Origin: Elusimicrobia bacterium GWF2_62_30
Lineage (GTDB): Bacteria; Elusimicrobiota; Elusimicrobia; Elusimicrobiales; UBA9959
NCBI GenBank assembly: GCA_001799995.1
Contig: MGUK01000084.1
Coordinates: forward strand, 92,320-156,319
DNA length: 64,000 nt
Reading direction: 5' to 3'
Part shown: positions 12,001-28,200 of the stretch, piece by piece
How the letters are laid out: each line of letters starts with the position of its first letter
Position numbering within the stretch: the stretch's first letter is position 1
Position numbers and translations under genes: made by a program
Notes under the pieces: generated by a model
What the model saw: only the letters and a program-made list of their open reading frames with translations
What the model was told of the DNA's origin: nothing
Databases searched by the model: none

Positions 12001-13484
12001 AAGCCAACACCAACTCGAGCGGCGAGTACGAACTGCCCGGCATAATTCCCGGCCACCTCTACAAGGTGTCCGCGTTCTATCCCGGCAAGCTCACCACCAC
12101 GCTGGACGTTACGGCCGTGGACGGCTACACGTATATCGACGACATCGTGCTCTCCGATATAAGACCGCAGATAACCGTCAAGGCGAAGAAGTCGCCCGAC
12201 TCGGCGAGCAAGGTGGACGTGACCATCAAGTCGCCCAAGAAGCTGGTAACGGCCCCGGTGTGCAAGTTCAACCCGTCGGGAGCCGCGGCGGAATACCTGC
12301 CCGCCACGGCGGTGACCCTGGCGCTGGTGCCCGGCCCGAACAACACGTATAACGGCCAGTTCACCGTCTCGCGCAGCCAGCGGTATTATACCGTCTACGT
12401 GCTGGCCGGCGACACGGACAAGACCGAGAAAACCGTGCTGTACGACCAGAACAACGAGGCCAGGACCGACCAGTACATCCAGGACGAGTCCATAAGGGGC
12501 GGCGAAGTGCAGATGGACGTGGAGAGCGAGGAGTATTCCGGCATAGAGCTGGATCCCGGCTCCATCTCCTACTCCACCAACCCGGCGGGGACTTCGGCGT
12601 ACTCCGTCTCGGCGGCCGGGGGAGACCTCGTTGGAGGCTTCTTCAGCTCGCTGCCCAGCGTGCGCACCGTGAAGACGGCGAAGGGTAATCTGACCATCGA
12701 GGCCGCGGTACAGGACCTCATGGCGTCGGAGGTCTATGACATGGACCTCGACAACGCCAGCGTCAACAAGCCCATCACCCTCACGCTGAAGTACGACAAG
12801 GAGAAGGGCGCCGGGGCCAACCTGAAGATCTACAGGAGGAACCCCGAGACCGGCGAGTGGGAGGAAGTCCCCGGCAACTATACCGTGGACCCCATGCTCG
12901 GCGTGGTGTCCGTGGACGTGGAGTGTCTGGACCACGCCCAGGACTGTCAGGGGGCTTCGAATACGCCGCTGGGGCGCAAACGCTACGGCATGAGCGCCGT
13001 GGTCAACGGCCGGTATGTCATGCCGGCTTCCGGGACCGGCACCCAGAGCGGCCAGTTCGCCGTGTTCACCGCCAAGCCCGCCACCGGGATAGCCTACACC
13101 GGAGGGTTCGATGTCTATAATCTGCCGAACCCGTTCAGCCTGAAGAACAAGACCGTTACCAACATACAGGGTACCGGGGCCTTTACGGGGCTGAGCGGTT
13201 ATAACTCCGGCGCGCAGTCCTATACCGTGAAAGGAACGCTGCTGAAGTACCACCTGCCCCCGGGCAAGTCGGGCAACCTCAAGTTCGTCATCTATAACCT
13301 GGCGGGCGAGAAGGTGCGGACCATCGACGACAGCCACAGGGACGGCGGCTGGATCTACTACTCCGAGTGGGACGGCAAGAACGACAACGGCGCGGACTGC
13401 GCGTCGGGCGTCTACTTCATGCTGACCTACCTCGACGGCAAGCAGCTCGGCACCAAGGCGCACAAGATGGCGCTGATAAAATAA
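3..13484 (+). CDS. Giant secreted/surface protein, 5'-truncated (>4,480 aa): repeated beta-propeller (SBBP/NHL-like) modules, FN3/Ig-like and carboxypeptidase-regulatory-like beta-sandwiches, C-terminal FlgD-Ig/T9SS-like sorting domain
   Basis: Frame is open from nt 3, so the GTG at 39 is probably internal. Many 'D-x-x-G-N-V-Y-V-A-G...L-x-K-Y-D' blades; 'GSISGTI...ANATV...SDGSFRFENLPAGIYRLEV' repeats; C-terminus 'NLPNPF...IYNLAGEKVRTI...WDGKNDNG...ASGVYF...KMALIK'. Confidence 0.85.
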   Translation, partial: GLTSGLEADNLAVDNYTAGGPFVYIVGYASNLVSGKKDGYIIKYSSDGVKLSSAAITQPGYDFTAEAVKVSSEGFVYVAGGAAAADSVYSLVVKYTPSLVVVTSVTHGGYDLTMALGPTGEVVVGGFKYISFYGHDAWYITKYDSALNYVTNSNALSFASFDSTETVQGLALDSAGNIYAVGNKYDNSFGNYGIQVIKANPGMTTYSTIMPGDGLGIGVDILGNKNLGHASVLVDAADNLYVIHPSTNAATGLATAIRKYDTVPDLIGYQTFDSAYHDEPLTSGFDRYGNLLVSGWSFNDQRVYQGGFLLLYNPELVLITSGPMMAAGLDADMNRDYVYTLAGGGPEVHTFRFNLPSAGNIFSGGVYEAGGALVSNLFATGVAYYGSEVYSVGVNGTDSLLVRYNMVGNLVSSAVFTGAEFRAVKANANGVYLAGGGMVAKYDHSSGLVLSSAAVLPGDPTANDLVLDEAGNVYVAASETGAGGSDFKLVKFDSDLTYLTSVTQDFGGFERGFGVDVDTVAGRVYIAGTSLQGPSTFYMSGGYNTGDLGSPVFSAPYGGVYSDPEMNLGAKLAVNPVTHDVFLVGSLGTENDRKILTLKYNQNLTLSSAAAFPGGMYQLGMDVKVSSEGYVYVLGKDDTGGYDSTALLKYDENLVFLSSSAQYVPGVKFVGLSLALHPDLGDAYAAGVLDAGSGTNMFTARFEALPGVKYVPPLAFTGLFAEATGVTVNGGGMDMGTGAAVYGSYVYAVGHSAPAGSVIVKYDQTGNVASSATYSGAGFMNVVANGDGVYVAAQGDGTGFVTLKYTHSLVLSSAAVLPGDSSARDIALDASGNVYVIGSNMGEGGNDDYKIVKYDQYLAQQGAPGLFDAGGYDEGRGIAVDNGFIYVTGDSLMAGATYFVTAKLNSSYAVVASTVYAGAYVSAEFPMGEKLAINPVTHNVYLAANASPATMLILKYDQDLVPQAEETVFSTSSYAHAAGIKLDASGDIHVAGSYSNSLRDIPLLLKYDPQLVLLSSAAKAQPYNFEVVGLALDTTTGSGYLPGVYFSDGNGGNQSMWDMRTVKMDPLPGTGVYGVITGTVSYDGMQTGESLVAIFTSTDIINSNPYTFATINTAANPWDYTTPNLPAGTYYLLGIILTQGMEAGPQKYDPWDVLGSTDNMTAVVISEAGVQPGINLALVDGTDENPNPVFTGGYIKGAVSYSGAVQGVARVALSSAPLALGSSENIITNMLVGANSYEFGGLTMPGTYYITAWLDENENSQLDCGESNGAYRPTRGVDCAFESRPIFLAENTALAGADITVTDFVSVTGSIFKDMTMPDGNGVFMATQSAAGYVPFYMGAYIAGTSDIPYEFRLSTSAAPYDITLYIDENEDLNRGFFEAYGSTAGVLVAYGSPVTGADIILSTPIIPVPSLDWAGGMSYNETGVPDGYSGLFVYRVKYTSPNNLAPANGYPKVNIAYDGVPLSSSPFTMTALAPEDTDYSDGKMFTYTWALSAGSGSAGYSYQFAAYDSDNIPAVGPAAEATDGPLVSEPPAITYATTTHVLSGITAQVITNGMSGAQRLARDTAGNIYSAQEDSGILVLTRRTGSGVTQTTFVEFGGATLKDLAVDPFGNSYILAGTGESPLVAKFGTSGEELWISTFGYGADPVSLGVSTSGVVYAAANDTTDRSILLYKLKPDGSEVWETPVRYQYAQGASTDTVAHISVVPQSNVVAIYVAGAVSTGPMVTSGLLAKFIDNGGAVTLPAWVKLYSSASRDEYSEYRYAVAKAVAADKNGNVYVAGTDNRYDAGQGTDVWLLKYNSGGFQQWASAKTFNSDAYADDDVAALALDSIGDLYVSGGVVAWSSGGFNLWVAKYSSGGVRLLSRTYDYNGNSDYGYDVIAGSAAVYTAAEFDGASGLYELPLSIGAQSEYFTAAEGPNTGSVSLAWNYPVPLPEGSTFYVQYSSAAVPNWATVPLVTVSTGVAQWESQEYLVGGLMTGRDASQNIFPQYKFRVSLRSSAGIYTVLVSTPSSYARTPFAYDSTLPYGTAKFSYMHGTTAGENTGNAIAVSGSYVYQAFGNDSGDSVGLGFRKHNTNTSAVEWTKFFNTAAGAYFSVNALLRDSAGSFYAVGSRASIEDPANTDFWIGKFNADGDLIGSYSQDVDGGSDELFGAVLDGAGGLYTAGKFTDVTGENGGEISVRKYNVAASSPYLLWASTQSGSGAGQFVSMPARTGKSPAKFGQSGSGDDAAYGIALDVNNSRLYVTGAITVEAGNTDLWAARYTLDNHMVSSFTYNTGSGNAAGYGVAVAPSGVFVAGSRSNGSGTPVMYVAQYSLDFSTTVWDMAEGPDSESALHSVVVDANGYGYGAGFESSWEQEGLNAIFGKLAPNGNIVWNRYFNDDARNVDEAAYSIVLDTANRVFSSIRTGSYGSFSPGFYMFPQPSFNMTAAEYHVPGAVSLTWLSQATLPAGTTFYVQYATNNVTVVWSAAAAQESFITDKPLWESGQMEYKVYGLDNGKNALGAAIGPDYYFRVWYSTGAGSYTAVPGIPAAKAANAYMPESTLVYSGDNRLYTAGVRYMMDNGLTLNGAVRGPLGNIYSVVNAMQGESSLFALRKLSPGGLPLWTKYFTTSEYDRIKANRMAVDAAGNLYVTGRRARWDETTQTDESRMFLIRYNADGVMAWKYSGPLYTEGYSVAADASGHVYVAGSSGTYMTGGNDAWMAKFSVTSSSATLLWENLNDGAANEYDSAYGVAVAGSMAYFAGYSTEQTGDGGVWLGKYDGSGVLVSSRSISNAPGEEAAYGVAVSPVTGSIYVAGQAINNDYGTYDGVVYISSADLSDFGVTVSTYHSASTQWGRAAAYGLTLDAAGAVYVTGTDDRSDIGWGRDLWLRKYTSQLGADSELWTQTFNSNGQDDAGYSVALDSSGYVYAAGAFGMGDGVYRYKQASNLAYNPTLTARIMRGAPGTTDTTPFAGVSVAFIPYSQTGGIDAYGVRMGSTNASGYFTREMAPGRQYFIAVATQGYTPTVKDQQIDPNGTYFVQFAGDYEKTFTLYPAADPGNALSVTVTSATAGDLVTAEVFFTETGEKMAYAMAQVPASTTTVTFTVPSVATAAANVYTLGVTIPSRSVQRSRKLDSAFPSSRNAYDVCMSTTDGAIISSAGFDVTASTVPASFSGVVRNSATNAPVENVRVSLYHQDCVPEVKNNAYDEYQMLTDVNGKFSFYGVTPSTVPYLATLRKAGYGATGMGWCQYFVSSSVVNGGVTVSQGGGFNYQDFSLAEATFTFKGIVTYDNVPIPNANVMVHGDYTWYTGGSDSYRQGQGMGTDAKIRTGADGSFTFSSATANGLLEGGLRLNVDFLGSWRQFNEGRTNSNTVDSDDIRIVISGQRSTTTVSGCANGKVWMLSATDGSCRAAVYPGTPLVLNIEPPAGESRIGRIYGDLVFVTTYTVTEQSPLLISTAAPVTVMAMANCEGSCSNTQMGFVTLSGAYTVNTATYSISLATGTNYDVKLVSTEWGLTSSFDMDVDLQSTDTARVNFTVGRAGKLTGNILLPSGASYRPNLVSEDDPAFHSMYITIKGQQMDVFEKTMPDENGEFEFPNIAPGSYDLALVPRGDGFSWPPLTMEGITVASGRTTQVKPQLGEGLVVQPQIVGLPEQSTPTWRYLMIPVESGTEMNQKKVSELFFAEDSFAFGYATATATWDKKYMQPGQYDFYLVLRAQYNPGSEGSFSQFGNFIGKIKGVTIQRSEANPGLGSYAQPISVSILGAIGQGVFNGTLTGAKVFTENDCQRFFGNFNEMFSVIPAVMVYDGAGDLKGYTAAMPTEADLPGFLSVMQAQDLEGCKNYFVAHPAAFVMPGLPPGNYTAVFNNPNYPPVAKELSLPYENYAFDFDAQNLLSGSISGTIKSSSTLEAVANATVFLKHRTVEKYVNSASDGSFRFENLPAGIYRLEVLHSGFVKAGAKTSLSASDAASLSFYLIPSEAIMSGKVYMSKFPSPVTKAGVKIVAYDETLNVEAPSAYLPKIEANTNSSGEYELPGIIPGHLYKVSAFYPGKLTTTLDVTAVDGYTYIDDIVLSDIRPQITVKAKKSPDSASKVDVTIKSPKKLVTAPVCKFNPSGAAAEYLPATAVTLALVPGPNNTYNGQFTVSRSQRYYTVYVLAGDTDKTEKTVLYDQNNEARTDQYIQDESIRGGEVQMDVESEEYSGIELDPGSISYSTNPAGTSAYSVSAAGGDLVGGFFSSLPSVRTVKTAKGNLTIEAAVQDLMASEVYDMDLDNASVNKPITLTLKYDKEKGAGANLKIYRRNPETGEWEEVPGNYTVDPMLGVVSVDVECLDHAQDCQGASNTPLGRKRYGMSAVVNGRYVMPASGTGTQSGQFAVFTAKPATGIAYTGGFDVYNLPNPFSLKNKTVTNIQGTGAFTGLSGYNSGAQSYTVKGTLLKYHLPPGKSGNLKFVIYNLAGEKVRTIDDSHRDGGWIYYSEWDGKNDNGADCASGVYFMLTYLDGKQLGTKAHKMALIK

Positions 13485-13494
13485 AGCGGCGATA

Positions 13495-13519
13495 CGGCGG
13501 CCGGGAGTTCCGGCCGCCG
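13495..13519 (+). other. GC hairpin without a clear U-tract between the giant gene and the PorV-like gene
   Basis: cggcggccgg-gagtt-ccggccgccg, perfect 10-bp stem. Confidence 0.5.
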
Positions 13520-13565
13520 CGGATTTGTTCTCCGGTTCTTGATCAGGGCGTGATAGAGGTAACTT

Positions 13566-14495
13566 ATGAAAAAGCTATTCATCCTTTGCGTTGGTCTGCT
13601 CCTGCCGTCCGGTGCGTACGCCTCCGGCGCGGGCACTACGGCCGCTAACTTCCTGAAGGTGGCCATGAGCCCCCGCGCCATGAGCATGGGGGGGGCATAC
13701 AGCGCCATCTCCGACGATTCCGGCGCGGTGTTCGTCAACCCGGCCGGGCTCGCCCAAAGCGAAACGAAAGAGGTGGCCCTGGACTTCTCTACCTACCTGC
13801 AGGACGCCAAAATGGGGAATCTTTCCTATTCCGGCGTGACCGGCGGGAACCGCTTCGGCCTGGGCGCCACGTTCCTGACGGTGGGCGGGATAGAAAGGCG
13901 GGGCAACAGCGATGCGGTGGGCGTAGTGCCAGAGCTCGGCACCTTCGACGCCAACGACCTGGCCGTCACGTTCTCCTACGCGAAAAAGAATTTTACGCCG
14001 GAGCTGATGCCGCGTCTCGACGCGGGGATTTCCGTGAAGTTCATCCATTCCACCCTGTACAGCAAGTCCGCTTTCGCGGCGGCGGTAGACGCCGGAGCGC
14101 TGTACCGCGCCACGGATAAGATCAGCCTGGCGCTGGTGCTGCAGAACCTCGGCACGGAGATGAAATTCGACGAGGAATCCGATCCGCTCCCGCTCTGCCT
14201 CCGCACCGGCATGCTTTACAAGGCTTCGGACGATCTCAATATCTCCGCTGAAGTGAGCGAATACCTGCAGGACGAAAAATTCTATCCCGCCGTCGGCGCG
14301 GAATACTGGTTCCGCAGGTCTTTCGCGCTGCGCGCCGGGTACAAGTACGGTTATGACACCGAAAACCTCGGGTCGGTGGTGGGGTTGAGCGTCGGGTTCG
14401 GCCTGAAAGCTTCCGGGATGGGCGTGGATTACGCCTTCCTGCCTTTCGGCGACCTGGGCAGCATACACCGCTTCGGCCTGTGGATGGGCTTTTAA
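13566..14495 (+). CDS. PorV/PorQ-family (FadL-like) outer-membrane beta-barrel
   Basis: Signal peptide; 'FLKVAMSPRAMSMGGAYSAISDD...VNPAGLA' N-terminal motif; 'DYAFLPFGDLGSIHRF' and terminal Phe. Confidence 0.85.
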   Translation: MKKLFILCVGLLLPSGAYASGAGTTAANFLKVAMSPRAMSMGGAYSAISDDSGAVFVNPAGLAQSETKEVALDFSTYLQDAKMGNLSYSGVTGGNRFGLGATFLTVGGIERRGNSDAVGVVPELGTFDANDLAVTFSYAKKNFTPELMPRLDAGISVKFIHSTLYSKSAFAAAVDAGALYRATDKISLALVLQNLGTEMKFDEESDPLPLCLRTGMLYKASDDLNISAEVSEYLQDEKFYPAVGAEYWFRRSFALRAGYKYGYDTENLGSVVGLSVGFGLKASGMGVDYAFLPFGDLGSIHRFGLWMGF

Positions 14496-14515
14496 CACAC
14501 AACTTAGCGGACCGC

Positions 14516-14553
14516 AATAAATAAGGCCCCGGGGATCCGGGGCCTTATTTATT
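14516..14553. terminator. Bidirectional intrinsic terminator
   Basis: aataaataaggccccgg-ggat-ccggggccttatttatt between convergent genes. Confidence 0.85.
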
Positions 14554-14572
14554 TCAGGGACCGTTCCCGCGG

Positions 14573-15223
14573 TTACTTCATGAAATCCTGCTCCTGCCAG
14601 TCGCCGGGCGCGCCGTCTATAGAGGCCAGGCGCTGGTCCGAACCCGAACCGCCCGCGCTGTTCTTGAAGGAATCTTTCAGCTCGGACAGCGAGACGTCGG
14701 CCCGCTTGATGCGCATGAGCAGGTAATAGGTCACGGCGCCCATCACGGCGGAAACCGGCAGGGCGTAAAGGCCCGACGCGGACTTCAGGGTGAAGAGCAG
14801 GATGGCGCAGAGGAAGATCCAGAAAGAAAGCACGAGGCTGATCCCCGAGACGAAGTAGGAGATTATAAGGCTGTATTCGTCGTTCTTCGGGAGCGAGGCG
14901 AGGATGGCGGCTATCGCGATATTGAGAAGCGTGATGTACAGGGTGCGCTCCAGCCAGCTCTTCCACCGGTTCTTCGAAGTTATTACCACGCCTTCCCTGG
15001 GGTCGTTGCGCACCACCACCTCTTCGTCCATCACGGTTTCCACGGTGGGCTTCAGGGGCTGCAGCCTGGTCTCCTCGCCGTTGGCGGGCGTATAATCGAA
15101 AGCGCGCTCCTGTTCCGGCGTCTGCGCGCGCAGGGTCGCGCTGCAGGCCAATACGGCCAGCGGCGCCAGCAGGAGGAAAAGCGCGGTCCTTGCGCGCCGC
15201 CCGGTCGGTGATATGGTCCGCAT
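14573..15223 (-). CDS. Hypothetical membrane protein (signal peptide plus about 3 TM helices)
   Basis: Hydrophobic N-terminus and three hydrophobic stretches; host-like codon usage; closely follows upstream ORF. Confidence 0.65.
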   Translation of the reverse strand: MRTISPTGRRARTALFLLLAPLAVLACSATLRAQTPEQERAFDYTPANGEETRLQPLKPTVETVMDEEVVVRNDPREGVVITSKNRWKSWLERTLYITLLNIAIAAILASLPKNDEYSLIISYFVSGISLVLSFWIFLCAILLFTLKSASGLYALPVSAVMGAVTYYLLMRIKRADVSLSELKDSFKNSAGGSGSDQRLASIDGAPGDWQEQDFMK

Positions 15224-15226
15224 GCG

Positions 15227-15544
15227 TCAGTTCCCCTCGTTCTCGTCGAGACCGGGGACAGCGGGGCCGTCCTCGTTGTCGATCTTGTAATACTGCCTGC
15301 TTCCGGACTTCATCTTGGTGGGCATGAACTGCACTTCCTTAAGCGCGTTCTGCTGTACTTCCTGGGGCTTCCTGGCGTTGATCTTCATCTTCTTGCGGAT
15401 AGCCACCCGGTCCTGGAAGTGCCAGTAGGTCGACACCTGGCCGGCTATCATGGCCGTCAGGGTAAGGCCGCCGAGCAGGAAAGCTTCCCGGTCTTTGCGT
15501 ATCCAGTACTTGCGCAGTTTCGTTATCGCTGCAGGTATTTTCAT
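15227..15544 (-). CDS. Hypothetical small basic single-TM protein
   Basis: ATGA overlap with valS stop; one hydrophobic segment 'AFLLGGLTLTAMIAG'. Confidence 0.6.
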   Translation of the reverse strand: MKIPAAITKLRKYWIRKDREAFLLGGLTLTAMIAGQVSTYWHFQDRVAIRKKMKINARKPQEVQQNALKEVQFMPTKMKSGSRQYYKIDNEDGPAVPGLDENEGN

Positions 15545-18234
15545 TTTAGTTCTTCCAGTATGGCCGTCAGCCTCTCCATCTTCCCCTGCGTGTCGGAGGC
15601 CCGGGCCTTTATCTTTTCGACTTCCGCCGCCGGGGCATGCCCCATGAACGACGGGTCGCGCAGGCGCTCAAGGCACTGCGCGCTGTCCCTCTGGACGCGC
15701 TCCAGCTCTTTCGCCAGCCTCGCTTTTTCCTTTTCCAGGTCCACGGCCCCGTCCATGGGGACGTAAATATTGAACTGCCCCGAGATCGCGCTTACGGAGC
15801 GGGGGGGCTTCTGTATGTCCGCGCCGAGGGCGAGGTCTTCCACTTTAGCCAGCAGCTTCACATAGCCGGCGCCCGTCCTGAGGCGCTCCAGCGCGGCGGG
15901 GTCGCTTGAAGCGGCCAGCACCTTTATCTGTTTGCCGGGCGGGATCTCGAACTGCGCCCTGGCGGCGCGTATCTGGGTGATCACGGCCATGAGCTCCTCC
16001 ATCTGCGCGGAGGCCCCGGTCCCGGCGGCGCCGGGTTCGGGCCAGGCCGCTTTGAGCAGGAACGCTTCCCCGGTTTTTAGGTAAGGTTTCAGGGTGGAAT
16101 AAAGTTCTTCCGTGATATACGGGATGAACGGGTGCAGCGCTTTCAGCGCGCCGGTGAAAAGGTCCAGCATCAGGCCGAGCACCTTCTCTTTGTCCGGGCC
16201 CGCCAGGCGCGGCTTCGCCAGCTCCAGGTACCAGTCGCACAGCTCGTCCCAGACGAACGCGTAAAGCGCGTCCTGCGCTTTCGGCAGGTCGTATTCGGCC
16301 ATGGCCGCCTTGGAGCGCGCGAGCGCCCCGGCGAAGCGTTCCGTTATCCAGCGGTCGGCGAGCTCGCCGGGCCGCTCCGCCGTGAGCGGGGCGGGCGTCT
16401 CCGGCAGGTACATCTGCAGGAACCGGGCCACGTTGTAGAGCTTGTTCACGAAGTTGCGGCCGCCTATGATGGCGTCGTCGGAGAAGGGGATGTCCTTGCC
16501 GCCCAGGGTCTGCGCCATCAGCGAGAAGCGCATGGCGTCGGTGCCGTACTTCTCTATCATGGTAAGCGGGTCTATCACGTTGCCCAGCGACTTGGACATC
16601 TTCTTACCGTGCTTGTCCCGCACGATGCCGTGCAGGTACACCTGGGAGAACGGGGGCTTGCCCATGTGCTCTATGCCGCTCATCACCATGCGGGCTACCC
16701 ACAGGTAAAGTATCTCGTAGCCGGTGACCAGCACGGAGGTGGGGTAATAGTAAGCCAGCTCTTTGGTCTTTTCGGGCCAGCCGAAAACCGAGAAAGGCCA
16801 CAGCGCCGAAGAGAACCAGGTGTCCAGCACGTCGGGGTCCTGCAGCAGGTCCGTGCCGCCGCAGTCCGGGCAGGCGGCGGGTTTGGCGAAGGAGATCACC
16901 GGCTTGGCGCCCTGCGCGAAAGAAACGCGGGAGAGCTCCCCTTTGTCGGAGAACTTAAGCCCGGCGCCGGAACAGCTGCGGCAGTACCAGGCCGGGATGC
17001 GGTGGCCCCACCAGATCTGGCGGGAAATGCACCAGTCCTGGATGTTGCCCAGCCACTCCGTGAAGGGCTTCTTCCACGACGGAGGATAGAATTTCACGTC
17101 GCCGTTCTCGGCGGCGGCGGCGGCCGGCGCGGCCAGGCCTTTCATCTTCACGAACCACTGCTCCGACACCAGCGGCTCGATATGCTGGTTGCAGCGGGAG
17201 CATTTGCTCACCGAGTGTTTGTAATGTTCCTCTTTCTCCAGCAGGCCCGCGGCGTTGAGGTCTTCCACTATCAGCTTGCGCGCGGCCTGCACGTTCAGCC
17301 CGGCGTACTTCTCCGGGCAGTTGGTCATTTTCCCTTCGTAGGAAATTATGCGTATGTTCTCCAGGCCATGGCGCTGGCCTATCTCGAAGTCGAGCGGGTC
17401 GTGCGCCGGGGTTACCTTTACGGCGCCGGTCCCGAAGCCTTTTTCCACGCCCTCGTCGGCCAGCAGCGGTATCAGGCGGTCGGTCAGCGGCAGCTTGAGC
17501 TTCTTGCCGGTCTTGCCTTTGTACCTTTCGTCTTCCGGGTGCACGGCCACGGCCGTGTCGCCCAGCATGGTTTCGGGGCGCGTCGTGGCCACGGTGACCG
17601 AGCCGGAGCCGTCTTCGAAAGCGTAGCGGATGTGCCAGAGCTTGGATTTCTCGTCCTCGTGCTCCACCTCTATGTCGGAAAGGGCGGTGCCGCAGCGCGT
17701 GCACCAGTTGATCATGCGCTCGCCGCGGTAGATCAGCTTTTTATCCCAGAGCGAACGGAACTCCTCGAAGACCGAGGCCGCGCGCTTGTCGTCCATCGTG
17801 AACCGCACGTTGTCGGCGTTGAGGTCCAGCGAACAGCCGAGCTTGCGCAGCTGGCCGAGTATGGTGTTGCCGCATTCCGCGTACCAGGCCCAGGTGCGCT
17901 TTAAAAATTCTTCGCGCCCCAGGTCATGGCGGGTCTTGCCCTCGGCCTTGAGCATCTTCTCCATCACGTTCTGGGTGGCGATGCCGCCGTGGTCGGTGCC
18001 CGGCACCCAGTAGGCCTCGCGGCCCAGCATGCGCTGGTAGCGCACCAACACGTCCTGCAGGGTGTTGTTCAGGGCGTGGCCCATGTGCAGCGCGCCGGTG
18101 ATATTGGGCGGGGGGATGACCACCACGAAAGGTTTGCGGTCCGGGTTCGGAGCGGAGATGAAAAGCCTTTCAGCCTGCCAGGCTTCGGCCCACTTGGCCT
18201 CCACCGGCTTGGGATCGTATACCTTGCTGAGCAT
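15541..18234 (-). CDS. valS: Valine--tRNA ligase
   Basis: PPPNITGALHMGH, DWCISRQIWWGHRIP, DVLDTWFSS, KMSKS, C-terminal coiled coil. Confidence 0.98.
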   Translation of the reverse strand: MLSKVYDPKPVEAKWAEAWQAERLFISAPNPDRKPFVVVIPPPNITGALHMGHALNNTLQDVLVRYQRMLGREAYWVPGTDHGGIATQNVMEKMLKAEGKTRHDLGREEFLKRTWAWYAECGNTILGQLRKLGCSLDLNADNVRFTMDDKRAASVFEEFRSLWDKKLIYRGERMINWCTRCGTALSDIEVEHEDEKSKLWHIRYAFEDGSGSVTVATTRPETMLGDTAVAVHPEDERYKGKTGKKLKLPLTDRLIPLLADEGVEKGFGTGAVKVTPAHDPLDFEIGQRHGLENIRIISYEGKMTNCPEKYAGLNVQAARKLIVEDLNAAGLLEKEEHYKHSVSKCSRCNQHIEPLVSEQWFVKMKGLAAPAAAAAENGDVKFYPPSWKKPFTEWLGNIQDWCISRQIWWGHRIPAWYCRSCSGAGLKFSDKGELSRVSFAQGAKPVISFAKPAACPDCGGTDLLQDPDVLDTWFSSALWPFSVFGWPEKTKELAYYYPTSVLVTGYEILYLWVARMVMSGIEHMGKPPFSQVYLHGIVRDKHGKKMSKSLGNVIDPLTMIEKYGTDAMRFSLMAQTLGGKDIPFSDDAIIGGRNFVNKLYNVARFLQMYLPETPAPLTAERPGELADRWITERFAGALARSKAAMAEYDLPKAQDALYAFVWDELCDWYLELAKPRLAGPDKEKVLGLMLDLFTGALKALHPFIPYITEELYSTLKPYLKTGEAFLLKAAWPEPGAAGTGASAQMEELMAVITQIRAARAQFEIPPGKQIKVLAASSDPAALERLRTGAGYVKLLAKVEDLALGADIQKPPRSVSAISGQFNIYVPMDGAVDLEKEKARLAKELERVQRDSAQCLERLRDPSFMGHAPAAEVEKIKARASDTQGKMERLTAILEELK

Positions 18235-18252
18235 GATTACCTCGATGTGGTC

Positions 18253-19344
18253 TTAAACGAATTCTCGGAAAACGGCGTTGGAAACGTAGAGGCGGTCCTC
18301 TTTGATCCTGAGCGTCCGGCCGTTCATTTCCACCAGGCCGGCGGCCAGCAGGCGCCGCGTCTCTTCCTTGAATTCTATAATTATATCGTCCTGCAGTTCA
18401 ATTCCGGCGGTCTTGCGCAGGCCTAGCATCAGCTTTTCCGCCCTTATCGCGCGCCCGGACAGCGTTTCCCTGTACTGCAGGGGTATCTCGGCTCCGGAGA
18501 TGGCGGCGCGCGCGTAAGCGGCCGTATCCGCGGTGTTGGCGCGGCGCTCGCCTCCCAGGTAGGAAGCCGCCGCGGCGCCGAGCCCGAGGTATTCTCCCTG
18601 GTCCCAGTAATTAAGGTTATGCGCCGACGCGCGCCCCGGCCGCGCGAAATTGGAGATCTCGTAGCGGGGCAGGCCGGCGCGCTTCAGCAGGCCCGCCGCC
18701 GCCTCGTACATGGCCGCGGCCTCTTCCGGTGCCTCTTTCACCCCGGCCGCGCCGAACGGGGTGTTCTCATGCACTTCCAGCGCGTAAAGCGATACATGCT
18801 CCGGCTTCAAATCCAGCAGCCGCTCGAGGGACAGCGTAAAGTCGGCCAGGCTCTGGCCCGGCAGCCCGCACATCAGGTCCGCGCTGATATTGGCGAAGCC
18901 GGCAGCGCGCAGGGCGCGGTAGGCTTTAAGAAAATCCGAGTTCATCGCTATCCGGCCAAGTTTTTTCAGCAGGGCGTCCTGCCACGCCTGCAGGCCCAGG
19001 CTTATCCTGTTCAGCCCGGCGCTTTTGAGCAGCGCGGCCTTGTGCGCGTCCAGGCTTTCCGGGTTGGCCTCGAACGTGCTTTCGGCCAGGCCCGCCACTG
19101 GGCCTGTCAGGGGGGCCAGCGCCGCAAAAAGCTTTTCAAGCTGCGCCGCGGAGAGGAGGCTGGGGGTGCCGCCGCCGATATAAAGTGTGCCGAAACTCCC
19201 GGCCAGCCCGGAGTAGGCCGAGGCCTCGCGGGCCAGCGCGGCCAGGTAATCGTCTATGCGGTCCTCCTGCCCCGCGGCGGAGGCAAAGTCGCAGTAGCCG
19301 CATTTTGACCGGCAGAAGGGGATATGTACGTAGAGGCCGCGCAT
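18253..19344 (-). CDS. hemW: Radical SAM heme chaperone HemW (HemN-like)
   Basis: YVHIPFCRSKCGYCDF, YIGGGTPS, YEISNFA, HNLNYW. Confidence 0.92.
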   Translation of the reverse strand: MRGLYVHIPFCRSKCGYCDFASAAGQEDRIDDYLAALAREASAYSGLAGSFGTLYIGGGTPSLLSAAQLEKLFAALAPLTGPVAGLAESTFEANPESLDAHKAALLKSAGLNRISLGLQAWQDALLKKLGRIAMNSDFLKAYRALRAAGFANISADLMCGLPGQSLADFTLSLERLLDLKPEHVSLYALEVHENTPFGAAGVKEAPEEAAAMYEAAAGLLKRAGLPRYEISNFARPGRASAHNLNYWDQGEYLGLGAAAASYLGGERRANTADTAAYARAAISGAEIPLQYRETLSGRAIRAEKLMLGLRKTAGIELQDDIIIEFKEETRRLLAAGLVEMNGRTLRIKEDRLYVSNAVFREFV

Positions 19345-19350
19345 GTAGAG

Positions 19351-19356
19351 ATTATA
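19351..19356 (-). promoter_or_regulatory. -10 box (TATAAT) 6 nt before hemW ATG, leaderless-type promoter
   Basis: Minus strand reads TATAAT-ctctac-ATG with no room for a Shine-Dalgarno. Confidence 0.6.
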
Positions 19357-19386
19357 GCGGATTCGGCGGAGAGGGGTGGAATGGCG

Positions 19387-19421
19387 AAAAAAAGACGGCC
19401 CGGTTTTATGCCGGGCCGTCT
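19387..19421 (-). terminator. Intrinsic terminator after the SPFH gene
   Basis: agacggcccgg...ccgggccgtct stem with 7-T tract on the minus strand. Confidence 0.8.
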
Positions 19422-19440
19422 CGTTCTCAGGCGGGACTGA

Positions 19441-20190: not shown

Positions 20191-20344
20191 GGAAACCTCC
20201 TGAACCCGTGCGGTTTTTCGAATCTAAAGTGTACCAAAGATGCCGGCTGAAAGCAAACCTCCGCCGTGGCCCCGCGGAACTCCGGCATAAGTCTTTTTAA
20301 ATTTAGTATTATATGGAGAGCGGTCTTTGAACACAGTCAATATT

Positions 20345-22773
<2,429 letters not shown>

Positions 22774-22788
22774 GCCGGCGGCTGCACA

Positions 22789-24288
22789 ATGGATAAAACA
22801 GCCTACCTGAGCGTGTACGACAAGACCGGGGTGGAGGATTTCGCCCGCGGCCTGTACGAACTCGGCTTCGGGATCTACGCTTCCGGCTCCACATATGAAC
22901 TGCTTAAAGAGGCCGGGATCGAGGCCGAAGAGGTGCGCTATTCCCCGCCCGTGCCTTACGCCGTGCTCAAGGCGCTGTCGGGCCGCTTCCCGGCCGTTTC
23001 GGAGAACGGGGTGGAGCTGCCCCGGTTCTACGTCGTGGCGGCCAACCTTTTCCCCATAGCCAGCATCGTCGGGCAGGAAGAATTCGCCATAGAAGAGCTT
23101 TCCAGCTACCTCGATCAGTCAAATTCTTCGGTGCTCAGGGCTGCCGCCAGGGATTTTACCGGGGTCATTACCATCTCCAGCCAGGCGGACTATGGCCCCG
23201 TGCTAGGCGCGCTGAAGGAAGCCGGCGGGCTGGAGCCCGACGTAAAAAAACAGCTGGCCGCCAAGGCCTGGCAGCACCTGGCCGCTTACGACGCCACCGT
23301 GGCGCAGTACCTTTCCGAAACGGGGAACCTGCTGGGCGACGAAGTGGTGATGAGCCTGAAGAAAGTGTCCGACCTGGATTACGGCGAGAACCGCCACCAG
23401 AAGGCGGCCTTTTACGCCCTGAGCGGGGCCCGCCCCCGCGGCCTTAACGCGGCCAGGCTGCTCTCCGGCGGGGCGCTCAACCTTAACCATTACCTTGACC
23501 TGGATACGGCGTTCGAGCTGGCGATGGAGTTCGAGGAGCAGGTCTGTGTTATTTCGAAACACGCCCGCCCGGCGGCGGTGTGCGCCGTTCCCCAGCAGGG
23601 CGAATGCCTCCGCGGCGCCCTGCGCTGCGACCCTGTGGGAGCGGTAGGCGGCACGGCGGCGTTCAACCGCCAGGTAGAGGCGGCCACGGCTGATATGCTT
23701 AGGGGTACGTTCATCGAGAGCGTGGTGGCGCCCGGCTACGCCCCGGAGGCGCTCAGGCTGCTGCGTTCGCGCGAAGGCCTGCGGGTGCTGGAACTGCCCG
23801 CCCCGGTCCTTTCGCCGCACGAAGTGGAACTCCATTCCGTCTCGGGCGGCCTGCTTATAGAGACCAAGGACAACCAGCTTTTTTCCCGGGAGACGCCGTG
23901 CGTGACGCGCCGCAAGCCTTCCGAAGAAGAGCTGCGGGCCCTCAAGCTGGCCTGGAAAACGGTAAAATACGCCAAGACCTATTCCATCGTGCTCGCCGAC
24001 GCGTGCGGCACCCTCGCGGTCAGCGCCGCCGAAAGCTCCACGTACGACGCCGTGCGCGGGGCGCTGTGGAAGATGCACGACAAGCGCGCCCTGCTCCCGT
24101 CCCCGGGCCCGCTGGCGATGGCGGCCGACGCCGCGCTGCCGCTCAAGACGCTCCAGACGGCGCTGGCCGGCGGGGTCCGGGCCGTCATCCAGCCCGGCGG
24201 CTGGCAGGACGACCGCGACTGCGCCGAACTTTGCGATTCGAAGAACGCCGCCATGCTTTTTTCCGGCATACGCCATTTCAGGCACTGA
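22789..24288 (+). CDS. purH: PurH-like (IMPCH/AICAR transformylase fold) protein with degenerate active sites
   Basis: Keeps SVYDKTG, YGEN.HQ, QPGG and terminal RHFRH; lacks GRVKTLHP, IDIGG, SNAI, GQ.SR and SDAFFPF. Confidence 0.8.
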   Translation: MDKTAYLSVYDKTGVEDFARGLYELGFGIYASGSTYELLKEAGIEAEEVRYSPPVPYAVLKALSGRFPAVSENGVELPRFYVVAANLFPIASIVGQEEFAIEELSSYLDQSNSSVLRAAARDFTGVITISSQADYGPVLGALKEAGGLEPDVKKQLAAKAWQHLAAYDATVAQYLSETGNLLGDEVVMSLKKVSDLDYGENRHQKAAFYALSGARPRGLNAARLLSGGALNLNHYLDLDTAFELAMEFEEQVCVISKHARPAAVCAVPQQGECLRGALRCDPVGAVGGTAAFNRQVEAATADMLRGTFIESVVAPGYAPEALRLLRSREGLRVLELPAPVLSPHEVELHSVSGGLLIETKDNQLFSRETPCVTRRKPSEEELRALKLAWKTVKYAKTYSIVLADACGTLAVSAAESSTYDAVRGALWKMHDKRALLPSPGPLAMAADAALPLKTLQTALAGGVRAVIQPGGWQDDRDCAELCDSKNAAMLFSGIRHFRH

Positions 24289-24307
24289 ACGAAGGAAGGG
24301 AACAATT

Positions 24308-25504
24308 ATGGGAAACATCATCTTTGGCGCGCTGCGGGCCGTACTCCCGGCGCTGATCCTCCTGGCCGCCTGCCGCGCGGAGGGCGTCTGCGCCCCGGTC
24401 TTTACCGAAGTCCAGGGCAAGGTCCTGTACCGCGCCTCGGCGGACCAGGAATGGGCGCAGGCAAGCCCGGGCCTGCGGGTGGCCGCGGGCGGCAGGGTAA
24501 AGACGGGCTGGTTCTCCTGGGCGGAGATCCGTTACGACGAGCGGACCATGATCGGGCTGGGGTTCGACACCGATCTCACCATCTATACCGCCAAGGCCGA
24601 CGAATATTTTTCCAAACTGGCCGCCGGGACCGTGCGCGCGGTGGTCAAGACCGCCATCAAGTTCACCATAAAGACGCCCGTTTCCGTGGTGGCGGTGAAG
24701 ACCAAGGGCACGCGTTTCGTGACCGTGGCTACGGCTTTGGGCCAGACCAAGGTAAAGGTCTTCTCCGGGATAGTGACGGTCAGCGACGCCAAGACCCGCG
24801 ACAAGGCCGTGAAGCCGGAAGAGACCCTCTCCATCGACGAGGAAGGCTCCGGGCCCCCGGAGCGGGCGGCGTCCGTTTCCCTGGGCGGGGGCTGGGCCAT
24901 CGACCCGCCGTACGGGTTCCGGGCCCGCGGCAAGACCGGCTGGGAGATGAAGACCTTCTCGCCTACCAGCGTAAGTTTCAAAGGCATCGAAGTGTCCATG
25001 GAGCGGACCGAAACCCTTTCGCTGGAGAAGCGGCAGGTCAGGTGGGAAAAGGGACAGGATTGGCCGATGCAGTGCCCCGCGGGGCTTTCGGCCCGCGAAG
25101 TAAGGATAGGCTCCCTCGAAGGCAAGCCTTTTGTTTCCTACGCCTGCCCGTCGCAGGACCTGGGCCGGGCCGAGTGGCAGAACCGCTATTATGAGATGCC
25201 GATAGAGGACAGCGCCGGAGCGGTTTCCTCCGCGCTGCGTATGCGCTATAAGCATTCCGTCCAGGCCAAGCTGCCCTCCGCCGCCGAGCTGGGCAAACTG
25301 TACGGCAGGCAGCCCGCCGGCGGCTACGCCGGCAGGTTCCAGGCCGACGTGATGCCCCTGATAGCCGCCGCCGCTAATAAAACGAAGCTGGACGGCCCGG
25401 GGATAAAAGCGGCCACCGAGTCCGTCCTGACCCTGTACCGCGAAATATGGGCCGGCAGCAATACCGACGAGTACAGCGGCAAAGTGGTGCCGATGATACA
25501 GTAG
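24308..25504 (+). CDS. Secreted FecR-domain protein with unknown C-terminal domain
   Basis: Signal peptide; 'VQGKV...VKTG..S.AEI......IGL', 'IKTP......KGTRF.......TKVKVFSG.VTV'. Confidence 0.75.
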   Translation: MGNIIFGALRAVLPALILLAACRAEGVCAPVFTEVQGKVLYRASADQEWAQASPGLRVAAGGRVKTGWFSWAEIRYDERTMIGLGFDTDLTIYTAKADEYFSKLAAGTVRAVVKTAIKFTIKTPVSVVAVKTKGTRFVTVATALGQTKVKVFSGIVTVSDAKTRDKAVKPEETLSIDEEGSGPPERAASVSLGGGWAIDPPYGFRARGKTGWEMKTFSPTSVSFKGIEVSMERTETLSLEKRQVRWEKGQDWPMQCPAGLSAREVRIGSLEGKPFVSYACPSQDLGRAEWQNRYYEMPIEDSAGAVSSALRMRYKHSVQAKLPSAAELGKLYGRQPAGGYAGRFQADVMPLIAAAANKTKLDGPGIKAATESVLTLYREIWAGSNTDEYSGKVVPMIQ

Positions 25505-25549
25505 GAACATAAACTGCGGGGAAATACCGCAGCTGGACGTGTCTGAACG

Positions 25550-27256
25550 ATGAAAAATATATATTCAGGGATACTGGTCCCGGTTCTGGCCACGGCGCTG
25601 TTCGCGCACGCCGCAGGCGCAGCGAACGTAAAGGCGGAACTGGCTCCGCTTAACCCGGAGTTCGTCCAGTATTTACAGGTCGTGAACTCGACCGCTGTCT
25701 TGTCCGCGCTTCCTGCCCCGAACGCGGTACTGGGGAGCGCCGGGCGCGGGTTCGGCCGGATCCCTTCCCCGCTTCTCCCGGTCAGGGGCCGCGCTTTAAC
25801 CGCGGAGGAGAACGACTCCGGGCTCACTTACGCTCCCGCCTACGACTTGCGCGACCATGGCAAGGTCACCGCGGTGAAAGATCAGGGCGCCTGCGGCGAC
25901 TGCTGGGCTTTCTCGGCGATGGGTTCAATGGAATCCTACTTCATGCCCAATATTCTGGACCTGTCGGAGGCGGACCTGAACGCCAACAGCGGGTTCGACA
26001 ATGGCTCCTGCAATGGCGGCAATGACTACATGTCCGCCGCGTACCTGACGCGCTGGAGCGGGCCGCTCCCGGAGTCCAGCTCCGGGGTGATAAAGCACGC
26101 GCAGGATATTATCTTCCTGACTCCGCGCTCCGGTCCAGCGGATAACGACCGCATTAAAAGCGCCCTGCTGGCCTATGGGGGCGTTACGGCCGCGTTCTAT
26201 TACAGCGACGCCAATTACAACGCCGCTACCCACGCCTACTATGCTTCAGTTTCCGCCGCCGGCAACCATGAGGTCGTCATAGTAGGCTGGGACGATAATT
26301 ACGATAAGGCCAATTTTAACACGGTTCCCGCCGGCAACGGCGCCTTCCTCTGCAAAAATTCCTGGGGCGCCTCCTGGGGCGACAATGGCTATTTCCATGT
26401 TTCCTATTACGATGCCGTGTTTTCCCGCTCGGATTATTCCTCGGCCTTTACCGGGGAACCGGTCGGGAATTATTCCCGGGTGTACAGCTATGACAAACTG
26501 GGCTGGGTACAAAATTACGGGTACAGCGCCGTTACCGCCTGGTATTCCAATATTTTCACCGCTGTCGCCGAAGAGGGGTTAAAGGCGGTCGGGTTTTATA
26601 CCAACGATTCGGCTACCGCCTACACGGTCTATGTTTATCGCGGGGTGAACGCCGGCCAGCCGGTCAGCGGGTCACTCGCCTATTCGGCGAGCGGGTCTTT
26701 CACCTCCCCCGGCTATCATACGGTTTCCGTGGGCTACCTTCCCCTCAGCGCGGGCCAGCGCTTCTCCGTGGTCGTAAAGGCGGTTAATGCGAGTTATACC
26801 TTCCCGGTCCCCGTAGAGGTGAAATTGACCGGCTATTCCGGACAGGCTTCCGCTTCGGGCAACAGCTATATGAGCGGCGATGGCGCTTCCTGGAGCGCTT
26901 TGCCGGCGCTGGCCGCAACGCTCACCAACGTCCCGCTGAAAGCTTACACTTCCTCGCAGCCCCCGGAAGGCGTGGTCGCGCTGACGGACAACCTGCTAAG
27001 GCCGCTGAAGAACCCCGCCGTGAAATGCAAAATAGCCCTGTCCATCTTCTCTCCCGGCAATGTGAGCGTAAAGATCTATACACAGAACGGGGGACTGGTA
27101 AGGACGCTGTATCACGGGCCGCAGGCCATCGGATCAGCCAATTACTTATGGGACGGCAGGAACGATGGCGGCGGGCTGGTGGCCAGCGGGGTCTACCTGG
27201 TCCATATCAAGGGACCGGGCACCGCTAAGACCGAGAAAGTGGTGGTGATAAAATGA
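25550..27256 (+). CDS. Papain-family (C1A) cysteine peptidase with lectin-like domain and FlgD-Ig/T9SS-like C-terminal domain
   Basis: QGACGDCWAF (catalytic Cys), NHEVVIVGWDD (His), KNSWG (Asn); C-terminus 'IYTQNGGLVRTL...WDGRNDGG...ASGVY...KVVVIK'. Confidence 0.92.
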   Translation: MKNIYSGILVPVLATALFAHAAGAANVKAELAPLNPEFVQYLQVVNSTAVLSALPAPNAVLGSAGRGFGRIPSPLLPVRGRALTAEENDSGLTYAPAYDLRDHGKVTAVKDQGACGDCWAFSAMGSMESYFMPNILDLSEADLNANSGFDNGSCNGGNDYMSAAYLTRWSGPLPESSSGVIKHAQDIIFLTPRSGPADNDRIKSALLAYGGVTAAFYYSDANYNAATHAYYASVSAAGNHEVVIVGWDDNYDKANFNTVPAGNGAFLCKNSWGASWGDNGYFHVSYYDAVFSRSDYSSAFTGEPVGNYSRVYSYDKLGWVQNYGYSAVTAWYSNIFTAVAEEGLKAVGFYTNDSATAYTVYVYRGVNAGQPVSGSLAYSASGSFTSPGYHTVSVGYLPLSAGQRFSVVVKAVNASYTFPVPVEVKLTGYSGQASASGNSYMSGDGASWSALPALAATLTNVPLKAYTSSQPPEGVVALTDNLLRPLKNPAVKCKIALSIFSPGNVSVKIYTQNGGLVRTLYHGPQAIGSANYLWDGRNDGGGLVASGVYLVHIKGPGTAKTEKVVVIK

Positions 27257-28200
27257 AACTATTACCCGCCGCCGCCTGTTTCTCTCTCGCCGCGTTCCTG
27301 TTCTCCTGCGGGCGCGCAGGAGCCGACACCGGGCTTACCGGGGCGTCGATACTTACCCGCCCTGTCGGCGCGAGGTCCTCCGGGATGGGACGCGCGTTCA
27401 CGGCTGTGCCGGGGGACGCGGAGAGCTTGCTATATAACCCGGCCGGCCCGGGCCTTGCCGCGCGGAGCTCCGTGTATCTCGCGTACATGAACGGCTTCGC
27501 TGACGGCCGGTACGGGCTGGCCGCCCTCCCGCTCAGGCTCGGACCTCTTACGCTGACCCCGGCTTATCTCTACTATGATTCCGGCAAGATAACCCTGAAC
27601 CTTTCGGACGGCACGCAGGAAACGGTGACCGCCGAGTTGGACAAGGTGGCCATGATCTCCGGCGCATACTCCCCGGCGGCCGGACTGGCGGTGGGGGGCA
27701 CTTTGAAATTCACTACGATAGCCCTGGCCGAGACCGCGTCCGCCTCGGCCAGCCATTATGACCTGGGCATCCTGTACCGGATGGCTTCCGGGCTCAGCTT
27801 CGGCGCGGCTTCGCTTAATCACGGGGACTACATTAAATTCGAGGAAGAAGGGGATCCCGCGCCTGTGACAACGCGCGCCGGAGTTTCCTACAAAACAGAA
27901 TTCCGCCCGGAGCTGATAGGCAGCCCGGATGACATTTCTTACAGCGATATCGTGCTTTCCGCCGACTGGAGCAGGACCGCGAAAGAAAGCTCCTGTTACC
28001 AGGCCGGCGCGGAGGTGAACATGGAGATGAGCGTGGGGGTAATGCTCAGCCTGCGGGGGGGCTACCTGTTCGACAGGGACGACGAAGGGATGACCCTCGG
28101 TGTAGGGGTCAGGAAGAACGAGTGGAACTTCGGCGTCGGCTACGAAACTTCGAAAAACCTGTCCCCCAGGTTCCCGGTCTCGCTTTCCCTGGAATTCTGA
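27253..28200 (+). CDS. Second PorV/PorQ-family outer-membrane beta-barrel
   Basis: 'PVGARSSGMGRAFTAV...LYNPAG', 'LRGGY', terminal Phe; ATGA overlap with the peptidase stop. Confidence 0.8.
   Translation: MKLLPAAACFSLAAFLFSCGRAGADTGLTGASILTRPVGARSSGMGRAFTAVPGDAESLLYNPAGPGLAARSSVYLAYMNGFADGRYGLAALPLRLGPLTLTPAYLYYDSGKITLNLSDGTQETVTAELDKVAMISGAYSPAAGLAVGGTLKFTTIALAETASASASHYDLGILYRMASGLSFGAASLNHGDYIKFEEEGDPAPVTTRAGVSYKTEFRPELIGSPDDISYSDIVLSADWSRTAKESSCYQAGAEVNMEMSVGVMLSLRGGYLFDRDDEGMTLGVGVRKNEWNFGVGYETSKNLSPRFPVSLSLEF

Follow-up and report, generated by a model that had tools for sequence, protein, structure and literature searches.

Does a barrel gene that lies directly 3' of the gene for a secreted protein encode a partner dedicated to that one protein? 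The question is raised by a 64,000-nucleotide stretch of a groundwater Elusimicrobia genome (Elusimicrobia bacterium GWF2_62_30, contig MGUK01000084.1; "the window" below means this whole stretch), in which a giant secreted protein and a C1A cysteine protease share a C-terminal domain (CTD) resembling those of type IX secretion systems (T9SS), and each is followed by a gene for a barrel of the PorV/PorQ family. A first reading made from the DNA letters (the sequence-only reading) took these PorV paralogues to be cargo-specific adaptors or surface anchors. By computing homology, adjacency, conservation, covariation and a modelled interface, and by locating a SprA-like gene, we found that the pairing of CTD and barrel genes is real, strongly non-random, conserved across the phylum and mechanistically coherent. 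What is said here of function comes from computation only, and it supports the sequence-only reading, in which the barrels would serve as adaptors or anchors.

Window genes were read as open reading frames (ORFs), and all positions are those of the window, position 1 being its first letter. The two cargo and barrel gene pairs have all four genes on the + strand, at the positions that the sequence-only reading had assigned to them, and comprise the following features:

3..13484, + strand: ORF of the giant secreted cargo; it runs off the 5' end of the window, which is without the first ~409 codons
13227..13481, + strand: CTD of the giant, a beta-sandwich of ~85 amino acids (aa); residues 4819-4903, as the envelope of a CTD hidden Markov model (HMM)
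13495..13519, + strand: G+C-rich 10-bp hairpin within the 81-nt spacer that follows the giant ORF
13566..14495, + strand: barrel gene P0001; 309 aa, signal peptide, PorV/PorQ family
25550..27256, + strand: C1A (papain-family) cysteine protease P0003; 568 aa, signal peptide, lectin-like domain, CTD
27008..27253, + strand: CTD of P0003, residues 487-568; 90.8 bits on the CTD HMM
27253..28200, + strand: divergent barrel P0002; 315 aa, a marginal member of the PorV/PorQ family

Paired genes in the window, the genome and the phylum

The full giant ORF encodes 4903 aa (C84:91092-105803) and begins with an N-terminal signal peptide. Its Pfam domains are CarboxypepD_reg, SBBP, fn3_3 and a C-terminal FlgD_ig-like domain, and we propose that the protein is adhesin-like. 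FlgD_ig reaches 27.4 bits on the last 499 aa (cut-off 27), the CTD scores 17.3 bits on CHU_C, under that model's cut-off of 27, and the giant had no match to TIGR04183 or PF18962. The protease P0003 matches Peptidase_C1 (86.4 bits), Lectin_like (139.1 bits) and FlgD_ig (38.1 bits, cut-off 27); its tail, with 21.7 bits, just misses the cut-off of 23 on the type A sorting-domain model of the T9SS (TIGR04183), and it had no match to CHU_C. Both window CTDs pass FlgD_ig, miss TIGR04183 and PF18962 Por_Secre_tail (cut-off 27 for the latter), and match the NCBIfam models of PorZ or PorU in the C-terminal (CTD) portion. The two are identical at 27 of 70 aligned residues (39%, E 2e-9), and the motif that the sequence-only reading had quoted as common to the giant and the protease is indeed present in both.

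The two modules differ in how closely their genes are joined. The 81-nt spacer between the giant's stop codon and P0001 is the longest gap among the genome's 20 pairs; the hairpin within it could conceivably serve in attenuation or as a stability element, and the folding energy of the spacer is no better than that of shuffles (z -1.05). In the second module the ATG of P0002 overlaps the TGA of the protease gene, an ATGA overlap that had been reported before and that is read directly from the sequence as AAAATGAAA. Upstream of this module, a 398-aa ORF (24308-25504, + strand) ends 45 nt 5' of the protease gene; it has a lipobox-like signal peptide (…LLAAC), no Pfam family, and its single match, to the model of the Leptospira adhesin Lsa33, is weak (25 bits).

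That each cargo gene is followed by its own divergent PorV-like gene was confirmed with NF033709, the model of the PorV/PorQ family (cut-off 90), which P0001 passes with 180.5 bits and on which P0002 scores 88.3 bits. The second-best model for P0001 is PorQ (NF033711, 139 bits), and PorV (NF033710) gives 78.4 bits; P0002 scores 49.5 bits on PorQ and 17.9 bits on PorV. Neither window barrel reaches the equivalog cut-offs (PorV 250, PorQ 220 bits), and neither had a match to PF11751 PorP_SprF. P0001 and P0002 are 25% identical (E 4e-16), and a profile of 14 paralogous barrels matches the sequence of the solved PorV 6h3i_F at E 2e-28. The fold model of P0001 (42-row alignment; pLDDT 85.9, pTM 0.82) shows a beta-barrel whose N-terminal segment is short and helical. 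Its best match in the Protein Data Bank (PDB) comes from the substrate-bound translocon, PorV chain 8gl6_F (E 1.6e-16, TMq 0.74), with PorV 6h3i_F matched as well, and the next structures are FadL, TodX and CymD at TMq ~0.6.

A genome-wide count of CTD and barrel adjacency had been suggested as a check on the sequence-only reading. We called ORFs across the genome (a 2.91-Mb assembly of 99 contigs, 84% complete) and built a CTD HMM and a barrel HMM from its own sequences. The CTD HMM matched 28 ORFs, in 27 of which the domain ends at the stop codon; the 28th, a contig-end ORF with internal repeats, was set apart, leaving 27. The barrel HMM matched 33 ORFs, or 32 once one genuine FadL had been set aside, and a six-frame scan with NF033709 gave 35 matched stretches and 23 passing barrel genes, three of which pass only after summing split same-frame matches. 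A barrel gene lies directly 3', on the same strand, of 20 of the 27 CTD ORFs, where ~0.33 adjacencies are expected by chance (32 barrels and an assumed ~2600 genes; binomial P for at least 20, ~5e-33). Adjacency is strongly enriched, and chance as its source is rejected. In 11 of these 20 pairs stop and start overlap (a distance of -4 nt), and in the other 9 the gap is 1 to 81 nt. From the barrel side, a CTD gene lies upstream of 20 of the 32, and four more barrels sit at contig ends and are not assessable.

The cargos joined to these barrels are varied. They include two C1 proteases with lectin-like domains, a C10 protease, an S8 subtilase and an FTP/PepSY propeptide protein, together with Kelch/fn3 giants (1932 to 3751 aa), beta-helix and GH141-like proteins, and DUF7948/SBBP propeller proteins. 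The sister CTDs of the genome match FlgD_ig, CHU_C (type B) or Por_Secre_tail (type A), mostly near the cut-offs, and two of them pass PF18962 with 29.2 and 29.8 bits. All barrels of the genome start with a signal peptide, and at least 14 carry C-terminal extensions of at least 90 aa (90-330 aa), in which Pfam recognises TPR repeats in seven barrels and OmpA, SH3, CsgG/LpoB-like domains and TSP_3 repeats in one each. Judged by these domains, the extended barrels may in effect be carriers fused to PorE-like wall-binding or scaffold domains. Three other barrels (contigs C29, C39 and C90) pass PorP_SprF with 48.4, 36.2 and 33.2 bits, and it is exactly their cargos that have CHU_C-like CTDs. Because these PorP_SprF barrels pair with CHU_C-like CTDs, the genome holds type B or PorP-like pairs besides those of the PorV/PorQ kind.

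One module occurs in near-identical form on contigs C1, C95, C42 and C92, its four barrels scoring 378-382 bits on the barrel HMM. Between the C1 and C95 modules the barrels are 95% and the CTDs 91% identical, and the lengths of the cargos of the near-identical modules differ greatly (848 aa vs 3751 aa). Since near-identical copies of CTD and barrel carry cargos of such different length, a recent duplication of the CTD and barrel cassette onto different cargos is suggested. A locus with the order reversed was also seen (C89:1-7028), where a divergent barrel (475 aa, 58 bits on the barrel HMM) is followed by a contig-end ORF with several internal FlgD_ig-like repeats.

The pairing extends to other members of the phylum. 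Relatives of P0001 at 66-82% identity were found at 31 loci, in metagenome-assembled genomes named Elusimicrobia, Elusimicrobiota or Elusimicrobiales, and the lineage of the barrel relatives is Elusimicrobiota; there were also two weak matches in Gastranaerophilales (27% over 95 residues). A CTD-ending ORF lies directly 5' of the P0001-type barrel in all 30 loci that hold upstream sequence, and because this ORF is usually open across the whole 6-kb flank, the cargo is a giant in the relatives too. Among 40 other genomes of the class, 16 have relatives of P0002, at 33-39% identity. A CTD ORF lies directly 5' of the barrel in all 12 loci that could be assessed, and many of these show the 4-nt overlap again; one more locus, with only 86 nt of upstream sequence, was left out. 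In three closed genomes (1.6-1.8 Mb) the barrels with an upstream CTD gene number 1 of 4, 3 of 6 and 2 of 10, as counted with a CTD model that was built on a single genome and could overlook divergent tails elsewhere. The genome with four barrels, of 1.6 Mb and from the same order as the one studied here, also has the SprA-like gene described below. NF033709 matches were found in 80 of 81 sampled phylum genomes; with the best 23 candidates per genome scored, the matches listed number 0 to 6 in families of 1.1-1.8 Mb genomes and 10 to 25 in most larger ones.

Of the 20 top-scoring barrel genes in G020, a genome from another class, 10 have a CTD ORF upstream, and one CTD there is, by eye, closely like that of the window giant. 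At nine of the 10 barrel genes of G020 that have no upstream CTD gene we saw a sub-threshold match to the cyclic di-GMP (c-di-GMP)-I riboswitch RF01051. These matches are full length (model 1-87), score 23-32 bits against a gathering score of 35, and lie on the gene's strand ~200-450 nt 5' of the called start; from this sequence likeness, the unpaired PorV-like barrels of G020 may be under c-di-GMP control. In the genome that holds the window, no RF01051-like match reached the gathering threshold in the window and 10 further loci.

Probable binding of the CTD to the neighbouring barrel

The fold model of the CTD (pLDDT 87.1) is a beta-sandwich with six DSSP strands. Searched against the PDB, it is nearest to FlgD Ig domains (E 4.9e-4), the PorZ CTD standing at rank 10 and the PorU CTD at rank 16 (structures 5m11 and 6za2), with the CTDs of T9SS substrates ranking below that of PorU. 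The domain is a compact Ig-like beta-sandwich at the extreme C-terminus, in which a glycine loop is conserved and the last strand contains lysine. In the alignment G42, W63, G65, N67, K95 and the A-S-G-x-Y stretch are near-invariant; the aligned sister CTDs open with a YPNP-like motif, all contain A-S-G-x-Y, and most finish with K..K..(I/V)x(K/R). In the Porphyromonas gingivalis CTD, a passage of PMC11285876 reports, the glycine-bearing beta3-beta4 loop and the C-terminal motif are the two elements that secretion needs.

Coevolution of CTD and barrel had been named as a further check on the sequence-only reading. One module with a cut CTD was excluded. Across the remaining 19 modules, the pairwise distances of CTDs covary with those of barrels (Mantel r 0.705; 0 of 10000 permutations as high), and with near-duplicates removed the correlation is 0.53 (17 modules; 1 of 10000 permutations as high). 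This shows that the CTD and barrel genes diverged as a unit.

We modelled one cognate pair, P0001 residues 20-309 with the giant CTD, in three runs and alongside 3 controls. The cognate complex scored ipSAE 0.92, 0.92 and 0.93, and the best of the 3 controls scored 0.01; 116 of 157 solved complexes attain this mark, as do 2 of 215 mismatched pairs. The contacts coincide to at least 85% between runs, with a partner pLDDT of at least 77. On the CTD side, the modelled interface falls on conserved parts of the domain: the IYNLAGEKV loop, which contains the conserved glycine (V36-T47), the ASGVY strand (N67-T83) and the C-terminal K..K.A.IK strand (K92-K100). On the barrel side, it comprises the N-terminal segment 20-32 and the turns 78-81, 104-112, 162-169, 199-207, 263-267 and 294-297. 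Judged by strand order, the contacted turns are all on a single face of the barrel, probably the extracellular one. In the solved system of Flavobacterium johnsoniae, according to passages of PMC10994853, substrates bind the extracellular loops of their carrier inside SprA. The complex model supports binding and is not proof of it; we think it likely that the CTD binds the neighbouring barrel.

A SprA-like protein and a proposed scheme for surface display

The sequence-only reading had noted that the window holds no core por, gld or spr genes, and domain scans of the window agree; it had also proposed a search of the genome for SprA, PorK-N and PorU. A divergent SprA/Sov homologue was found on contig C95, outside the window, as an open frame of 2230 aa (8724-15416 in its locus, - strand; 1782 aa on record, P0006). 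It matches TIGR04189 at E 8.8e-41 and 139.2 bits in three collinear stretches of a model of 2319 positions. All of 20 orthologues match the TIGR04189 family only and, where named, are called 'hypothetical protein'; the protein is present in 78 of 81 phylum genomes, including 72 of 75 high-quality ones. Its gene stands divergently beside a gene for an LptF/LptG-like permease, and a ComF-like gene lies downstream of it. The position of the LptF/G-like gene is taken in two related genomes by an ORF of about its size (370-372 aa), which is likewise divergent.

The searches for the other parts, PorK-N and PorU, were run and gave no motor, ring or sortase. GldL, GldM and GldN were not found in this genome (84% complete), with models that matched no control genome either, so that their sensitivity is unproven. 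In a phylum sample of 61 genomes (59 of high quality), GldM was found in none and GldL at its cut-off in none, with one 24.7-bit match; here too, no control genome matched. For GldK, this genome gave only generic matches of 55-59 bits against a cut-off of 350, and matches to the model are similar in genomes without a T9SS, such as that of B. subtilis. The PorU sortase model (NF033707) was matched in this genome only at positions 953-1094, which are its CTD, and Peptidase_C25 was not found, although 2 of the 61 phylum genomes have it. Judged by motor, ring and sortase, none of which could be recognised, the system is not a canonical T9SS.

A way in which the modules may work can nonetheless be outlined. 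Cargo and barrel, both with signal peptides seen in their sequences, would be exported by Sec, and the barrel would insert in the outer membrane. The cargo CTD would dock, as in the model, on the extracellular face of the barrel encoded directly 3'. By homology with the solved system, docking would probably take place while the barrel sits at the SprA-like translocon and the cargo passes through. Because no PorU-type sortase was found that could cut the CTD and link lipopolysaccharide in its place, the CTD would stay on the cargo. By analogy with type B CTD–PorP/SprF, PorQ–PorZ and PorV–PorU, each cargo would then remain non-covalently held by its own barrel, which would thus be its surface anchor. 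The stop/start overlaps would give 1:1 synthesis, and TPR, OmpA, SH3 or LpoB-like extensions could tie some anchors to the cell wall. Export route, CTD retention, anchoring and cargo specificity are what we infer in this scheme; taken whole, as a minimal T9SS-like surface display with no recognisable motor or sortase and characteristic of the Elusimicrobiota, it seems to us reasonably probable.

A number of observations weigh against it. The basis of the scheme is computational throughout, and P0002 falls 1.7 bits short of the family cut-off. A neighbouring barrel is absent for seven of the 27 CTD ORFs, and an upstream CTD gene for 8 of the 28 assessable barrels. Covariation of paralogues can stem from duplication of whole modules with no selection for fit. 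As a PorV–CTD complex has already been solved, the score of the modelled complex may reflect likeness to 8gl6 instead of binding by this copy. The SprA-like protein scores under the curated cut-off of 200, its orthologues reaching 108-166 bits, and searches of the PDB with its single sequence and with a 4-row profile gave no match. It is near-universal even in genomes of 1.1-1.6 Mb with few barrels, its gene adjoins the LptF/G-like one, and LptD (PF04453) had no match in this genome, with a model that matched only 2 of 14 control genomes. For these reasons, from the sub-cut-off score to the LptD result, the SprA-like protein may have another or an additional role. The main gap is the GldLM energy chain, which was not found here although the published release step needs it: passages of PMC10994853 describe release of the carrier from SprA as dependent on that chain.

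One form of the scheme would accommodate this gap. In it, the modules would belong to an ancestral or minimal type IX-like pathway, in which a SprA-like translocon works with many cargo-specific carriers of the PorV family, the CTD is never cleaved, and release is either powered otherwise than by GldLM/PorKN or not powered at all. We put this forward tentatively, as somewhat less probable than not.

The barrels might instead be interchangeable general shuttles, with an adjacency left by operon duplication and neither specificity nor lasting anchoring. Their membership of the PorV/PorQ family fits such a role, as do the recent whole-module duplicates on C1 and C95 and the unpaired genes; because 7 CTD proteins and 8 barrels have no partner as neighbour, some sharing of barrels must occur. 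For five of the seven unpaired CTD ORFs, no barrel could be recognised among the same-strand downstream neighbours, which are a Cache/HAMP adenylate cyclase in one case, a CARDB protein and then a FecR-like protein in another, and proteins without a Pfam family in the other three. Yet the pairing is kept across orders and classes though the paralogues are only ~25-35% identical, and the covariation persists once near-duplicates are removed. The 11 stop/start overlaps among 20 pairs suggest coupled 1:1 synthesis, and no sortase was found that would release or re-attach the cargo. We regard general shuttling as unlikely.

Cargo-then-barrel order and coupling also resemble the logic of TpsA/TpsB, and each barrel could be the export pore for its neighbour in the manner of two-partner secretion, with the SprA-like protein uninvolved. 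That protein is below the cut-off of its family and may act elsewhere, and no T9SS motor was found, both of which would suit a pore. What was modelled, however, is a plugged barrel of the FadL/PorV type with ~290 mature residues and no POTRA or Omp85 features, and the modelled CTD sits on the loops of one face, by our reading the outer one, and not in the lumen. Furthermore, the homologous PorV is a carrier and not a pore in the solved system, as described in passages of PMC10994853. Export through the neighbouring barrel is in our view quite improbable.

That the barrels are FadL-type channels taking up the products of a neighbouring surface enzyme is very improbable: PorV does share a fold class with FadL, the structures ranking next after PorV are FadL, TodX and CymD, P0001 has a weak Toluene_X match (PF03349, 22.2 bits) and several cargos are proteases or have glycoside-hydrolase-like domains, but that match is under the cut-off of 29.7 and compares with 248.1 bits for the genuine FadL in the same genome, P0002 has none, many cargos are Kelch/fn3/beta-propeller giants without an enzyme domain, and uptake would leave the shared T9SS-like CTD, the CTD–barrel covariation and the modelled interface unexplained. 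The sequence-only reading had itself named ordinary FadL transporters as what would overturn it; the Toluene_X results, and PorV as the nearest structure to the P0001 model, ahead of FadL, speak against that identity for the window barrels.

Relation to known systems and surroundings of the pairs

Display of each cargo on its own barrel most resembles, as a working parallel, that branch of the Bacteroidota T9SS which uses dedicated carriers (type B). Type B substrates are described, in passages of PMC12635249, PMC9143113 and PMC12618676, as having a dedicated carrier each and staying bound to it, and the same passages have this anchoring by the carrier independent of PorU and PorV. As in SprB–SprF or PG1035–PorP–PorE, a cargo gene stands here beside the gene for a dedicated outer-membrane barrel, and the likeness is closest in the three other modules whose barrels pass PorP_SprF and whose CTDs are CHU_C-like (C29, C39 and C90). 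Unlike type B pairs, the window barrels are of the PorV/PorQ family with no PorP_SprF match, and the window CTDs are FlgD_ig or type A-like; the lineage is Elusimicrobiota, where GldK, GldL, GldM and GldN were not found. A further likeness is that P. gingivalis PorE provides TPR and OmpA-like domains (a passage of PMC12773672), and many of the barrels here have TPR or OmpA domains fused to them.

In the attachment complex of P. gingivalis, PorQ–PorZ and PorV–PorU are likewise pairs of a PorV-family barrel and a secreted CTD protein. The CTD is uncleaved there: passages of PMC11285876 state that the CTDs of PorU, PorZ and PorA are kept after secretion. The likeness extends to the domains, as the window CTDs match the models of PorZ and PorU in their CTD parts and resemble the solved CTDs 5m11 and 6za2. 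The differences are that the cargos here are adhesin-like or a protease, that there are ~20 pairs against two, and that the partners are adjacent genes. With the type A pathway, the modules share a beta-sandwich CTD (glycine loop, lysine-containing last strand), a PorV homologue and a SprA/Sov homologue, but they have many dedicated barrels in place of one shuttle, and neither a PorU sortase domain nor a GldLM motor was found. FadL and TodX resemble the barrels in fold class, in the N-terminal segment and in the NPAG motif, which is invariant in the barrels; unlike FadL and TodX, the barrels score below the Toluene_X cut-off, are nearer to PorV in sequence and structure, and are genetically tied to CTD proteins.

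The lineage had been taken in the sequence-only reading as one with no characterised T9SS. In the literature that pairs Elusimicrobia with type IX secretion or T9SS, we found no description of T9SS parts in Elusimicrobia: the matched passages of PMC7031533, PMC12204202 and PMC8542988 do not join the two, and a preprint on giant genes names Elusimicrobia only as a source of data. T9SS is called specific to Bacteroidota or to the FCB superphylum in the passages that we found. A phylum outside the FCB superphylum has three of its parts, namely a SprA-like protein, PorV-family barrels, and CTD cargos that are linked one-to-one to those barrels. If the ancestral or minimal pathway put forward above is true, T9SS-type export predates Bacteroidota/FCB or lies outside them, and the general PorV shuttle, the sortase and the motor would be later additions. 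If the system works, the minimal set of parts for type IX-type transport becomes testable, and so does the coding of carrier specificity, with ~20 natural cognate pairs in one genome. A working system would also explain how Elusimicrobiota of groundwater and gut display giant adhesin-like proteins and proteases.

The surroundings of both pairs are housekeeping genes. The domain scan of the window recognised ValRS, a radical SAM enzyme, an SPFH protein, LigA, PurH and an aminotransferase, and further neighbours are a GH57 enzyme, enolase, MetRS, ribonucleotide reductase and FtsA/FtsZ. Since such genes lie between and around the pairs, the window is no secretion island. At the Rfam gathering threshold, the window and 10 further loci of the same genome gave only two tRNA genes (RF00005), both in the window, at 41736-41819 (+ strand, 56.2 bits) and 55460-55531 (- strand, 71.4 bits). 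A 1018-aa ORF without a Pfam family (49643-52699, + strand) lies where the AT skew of the window is at its strongest (0.337 at 50-52 kb).

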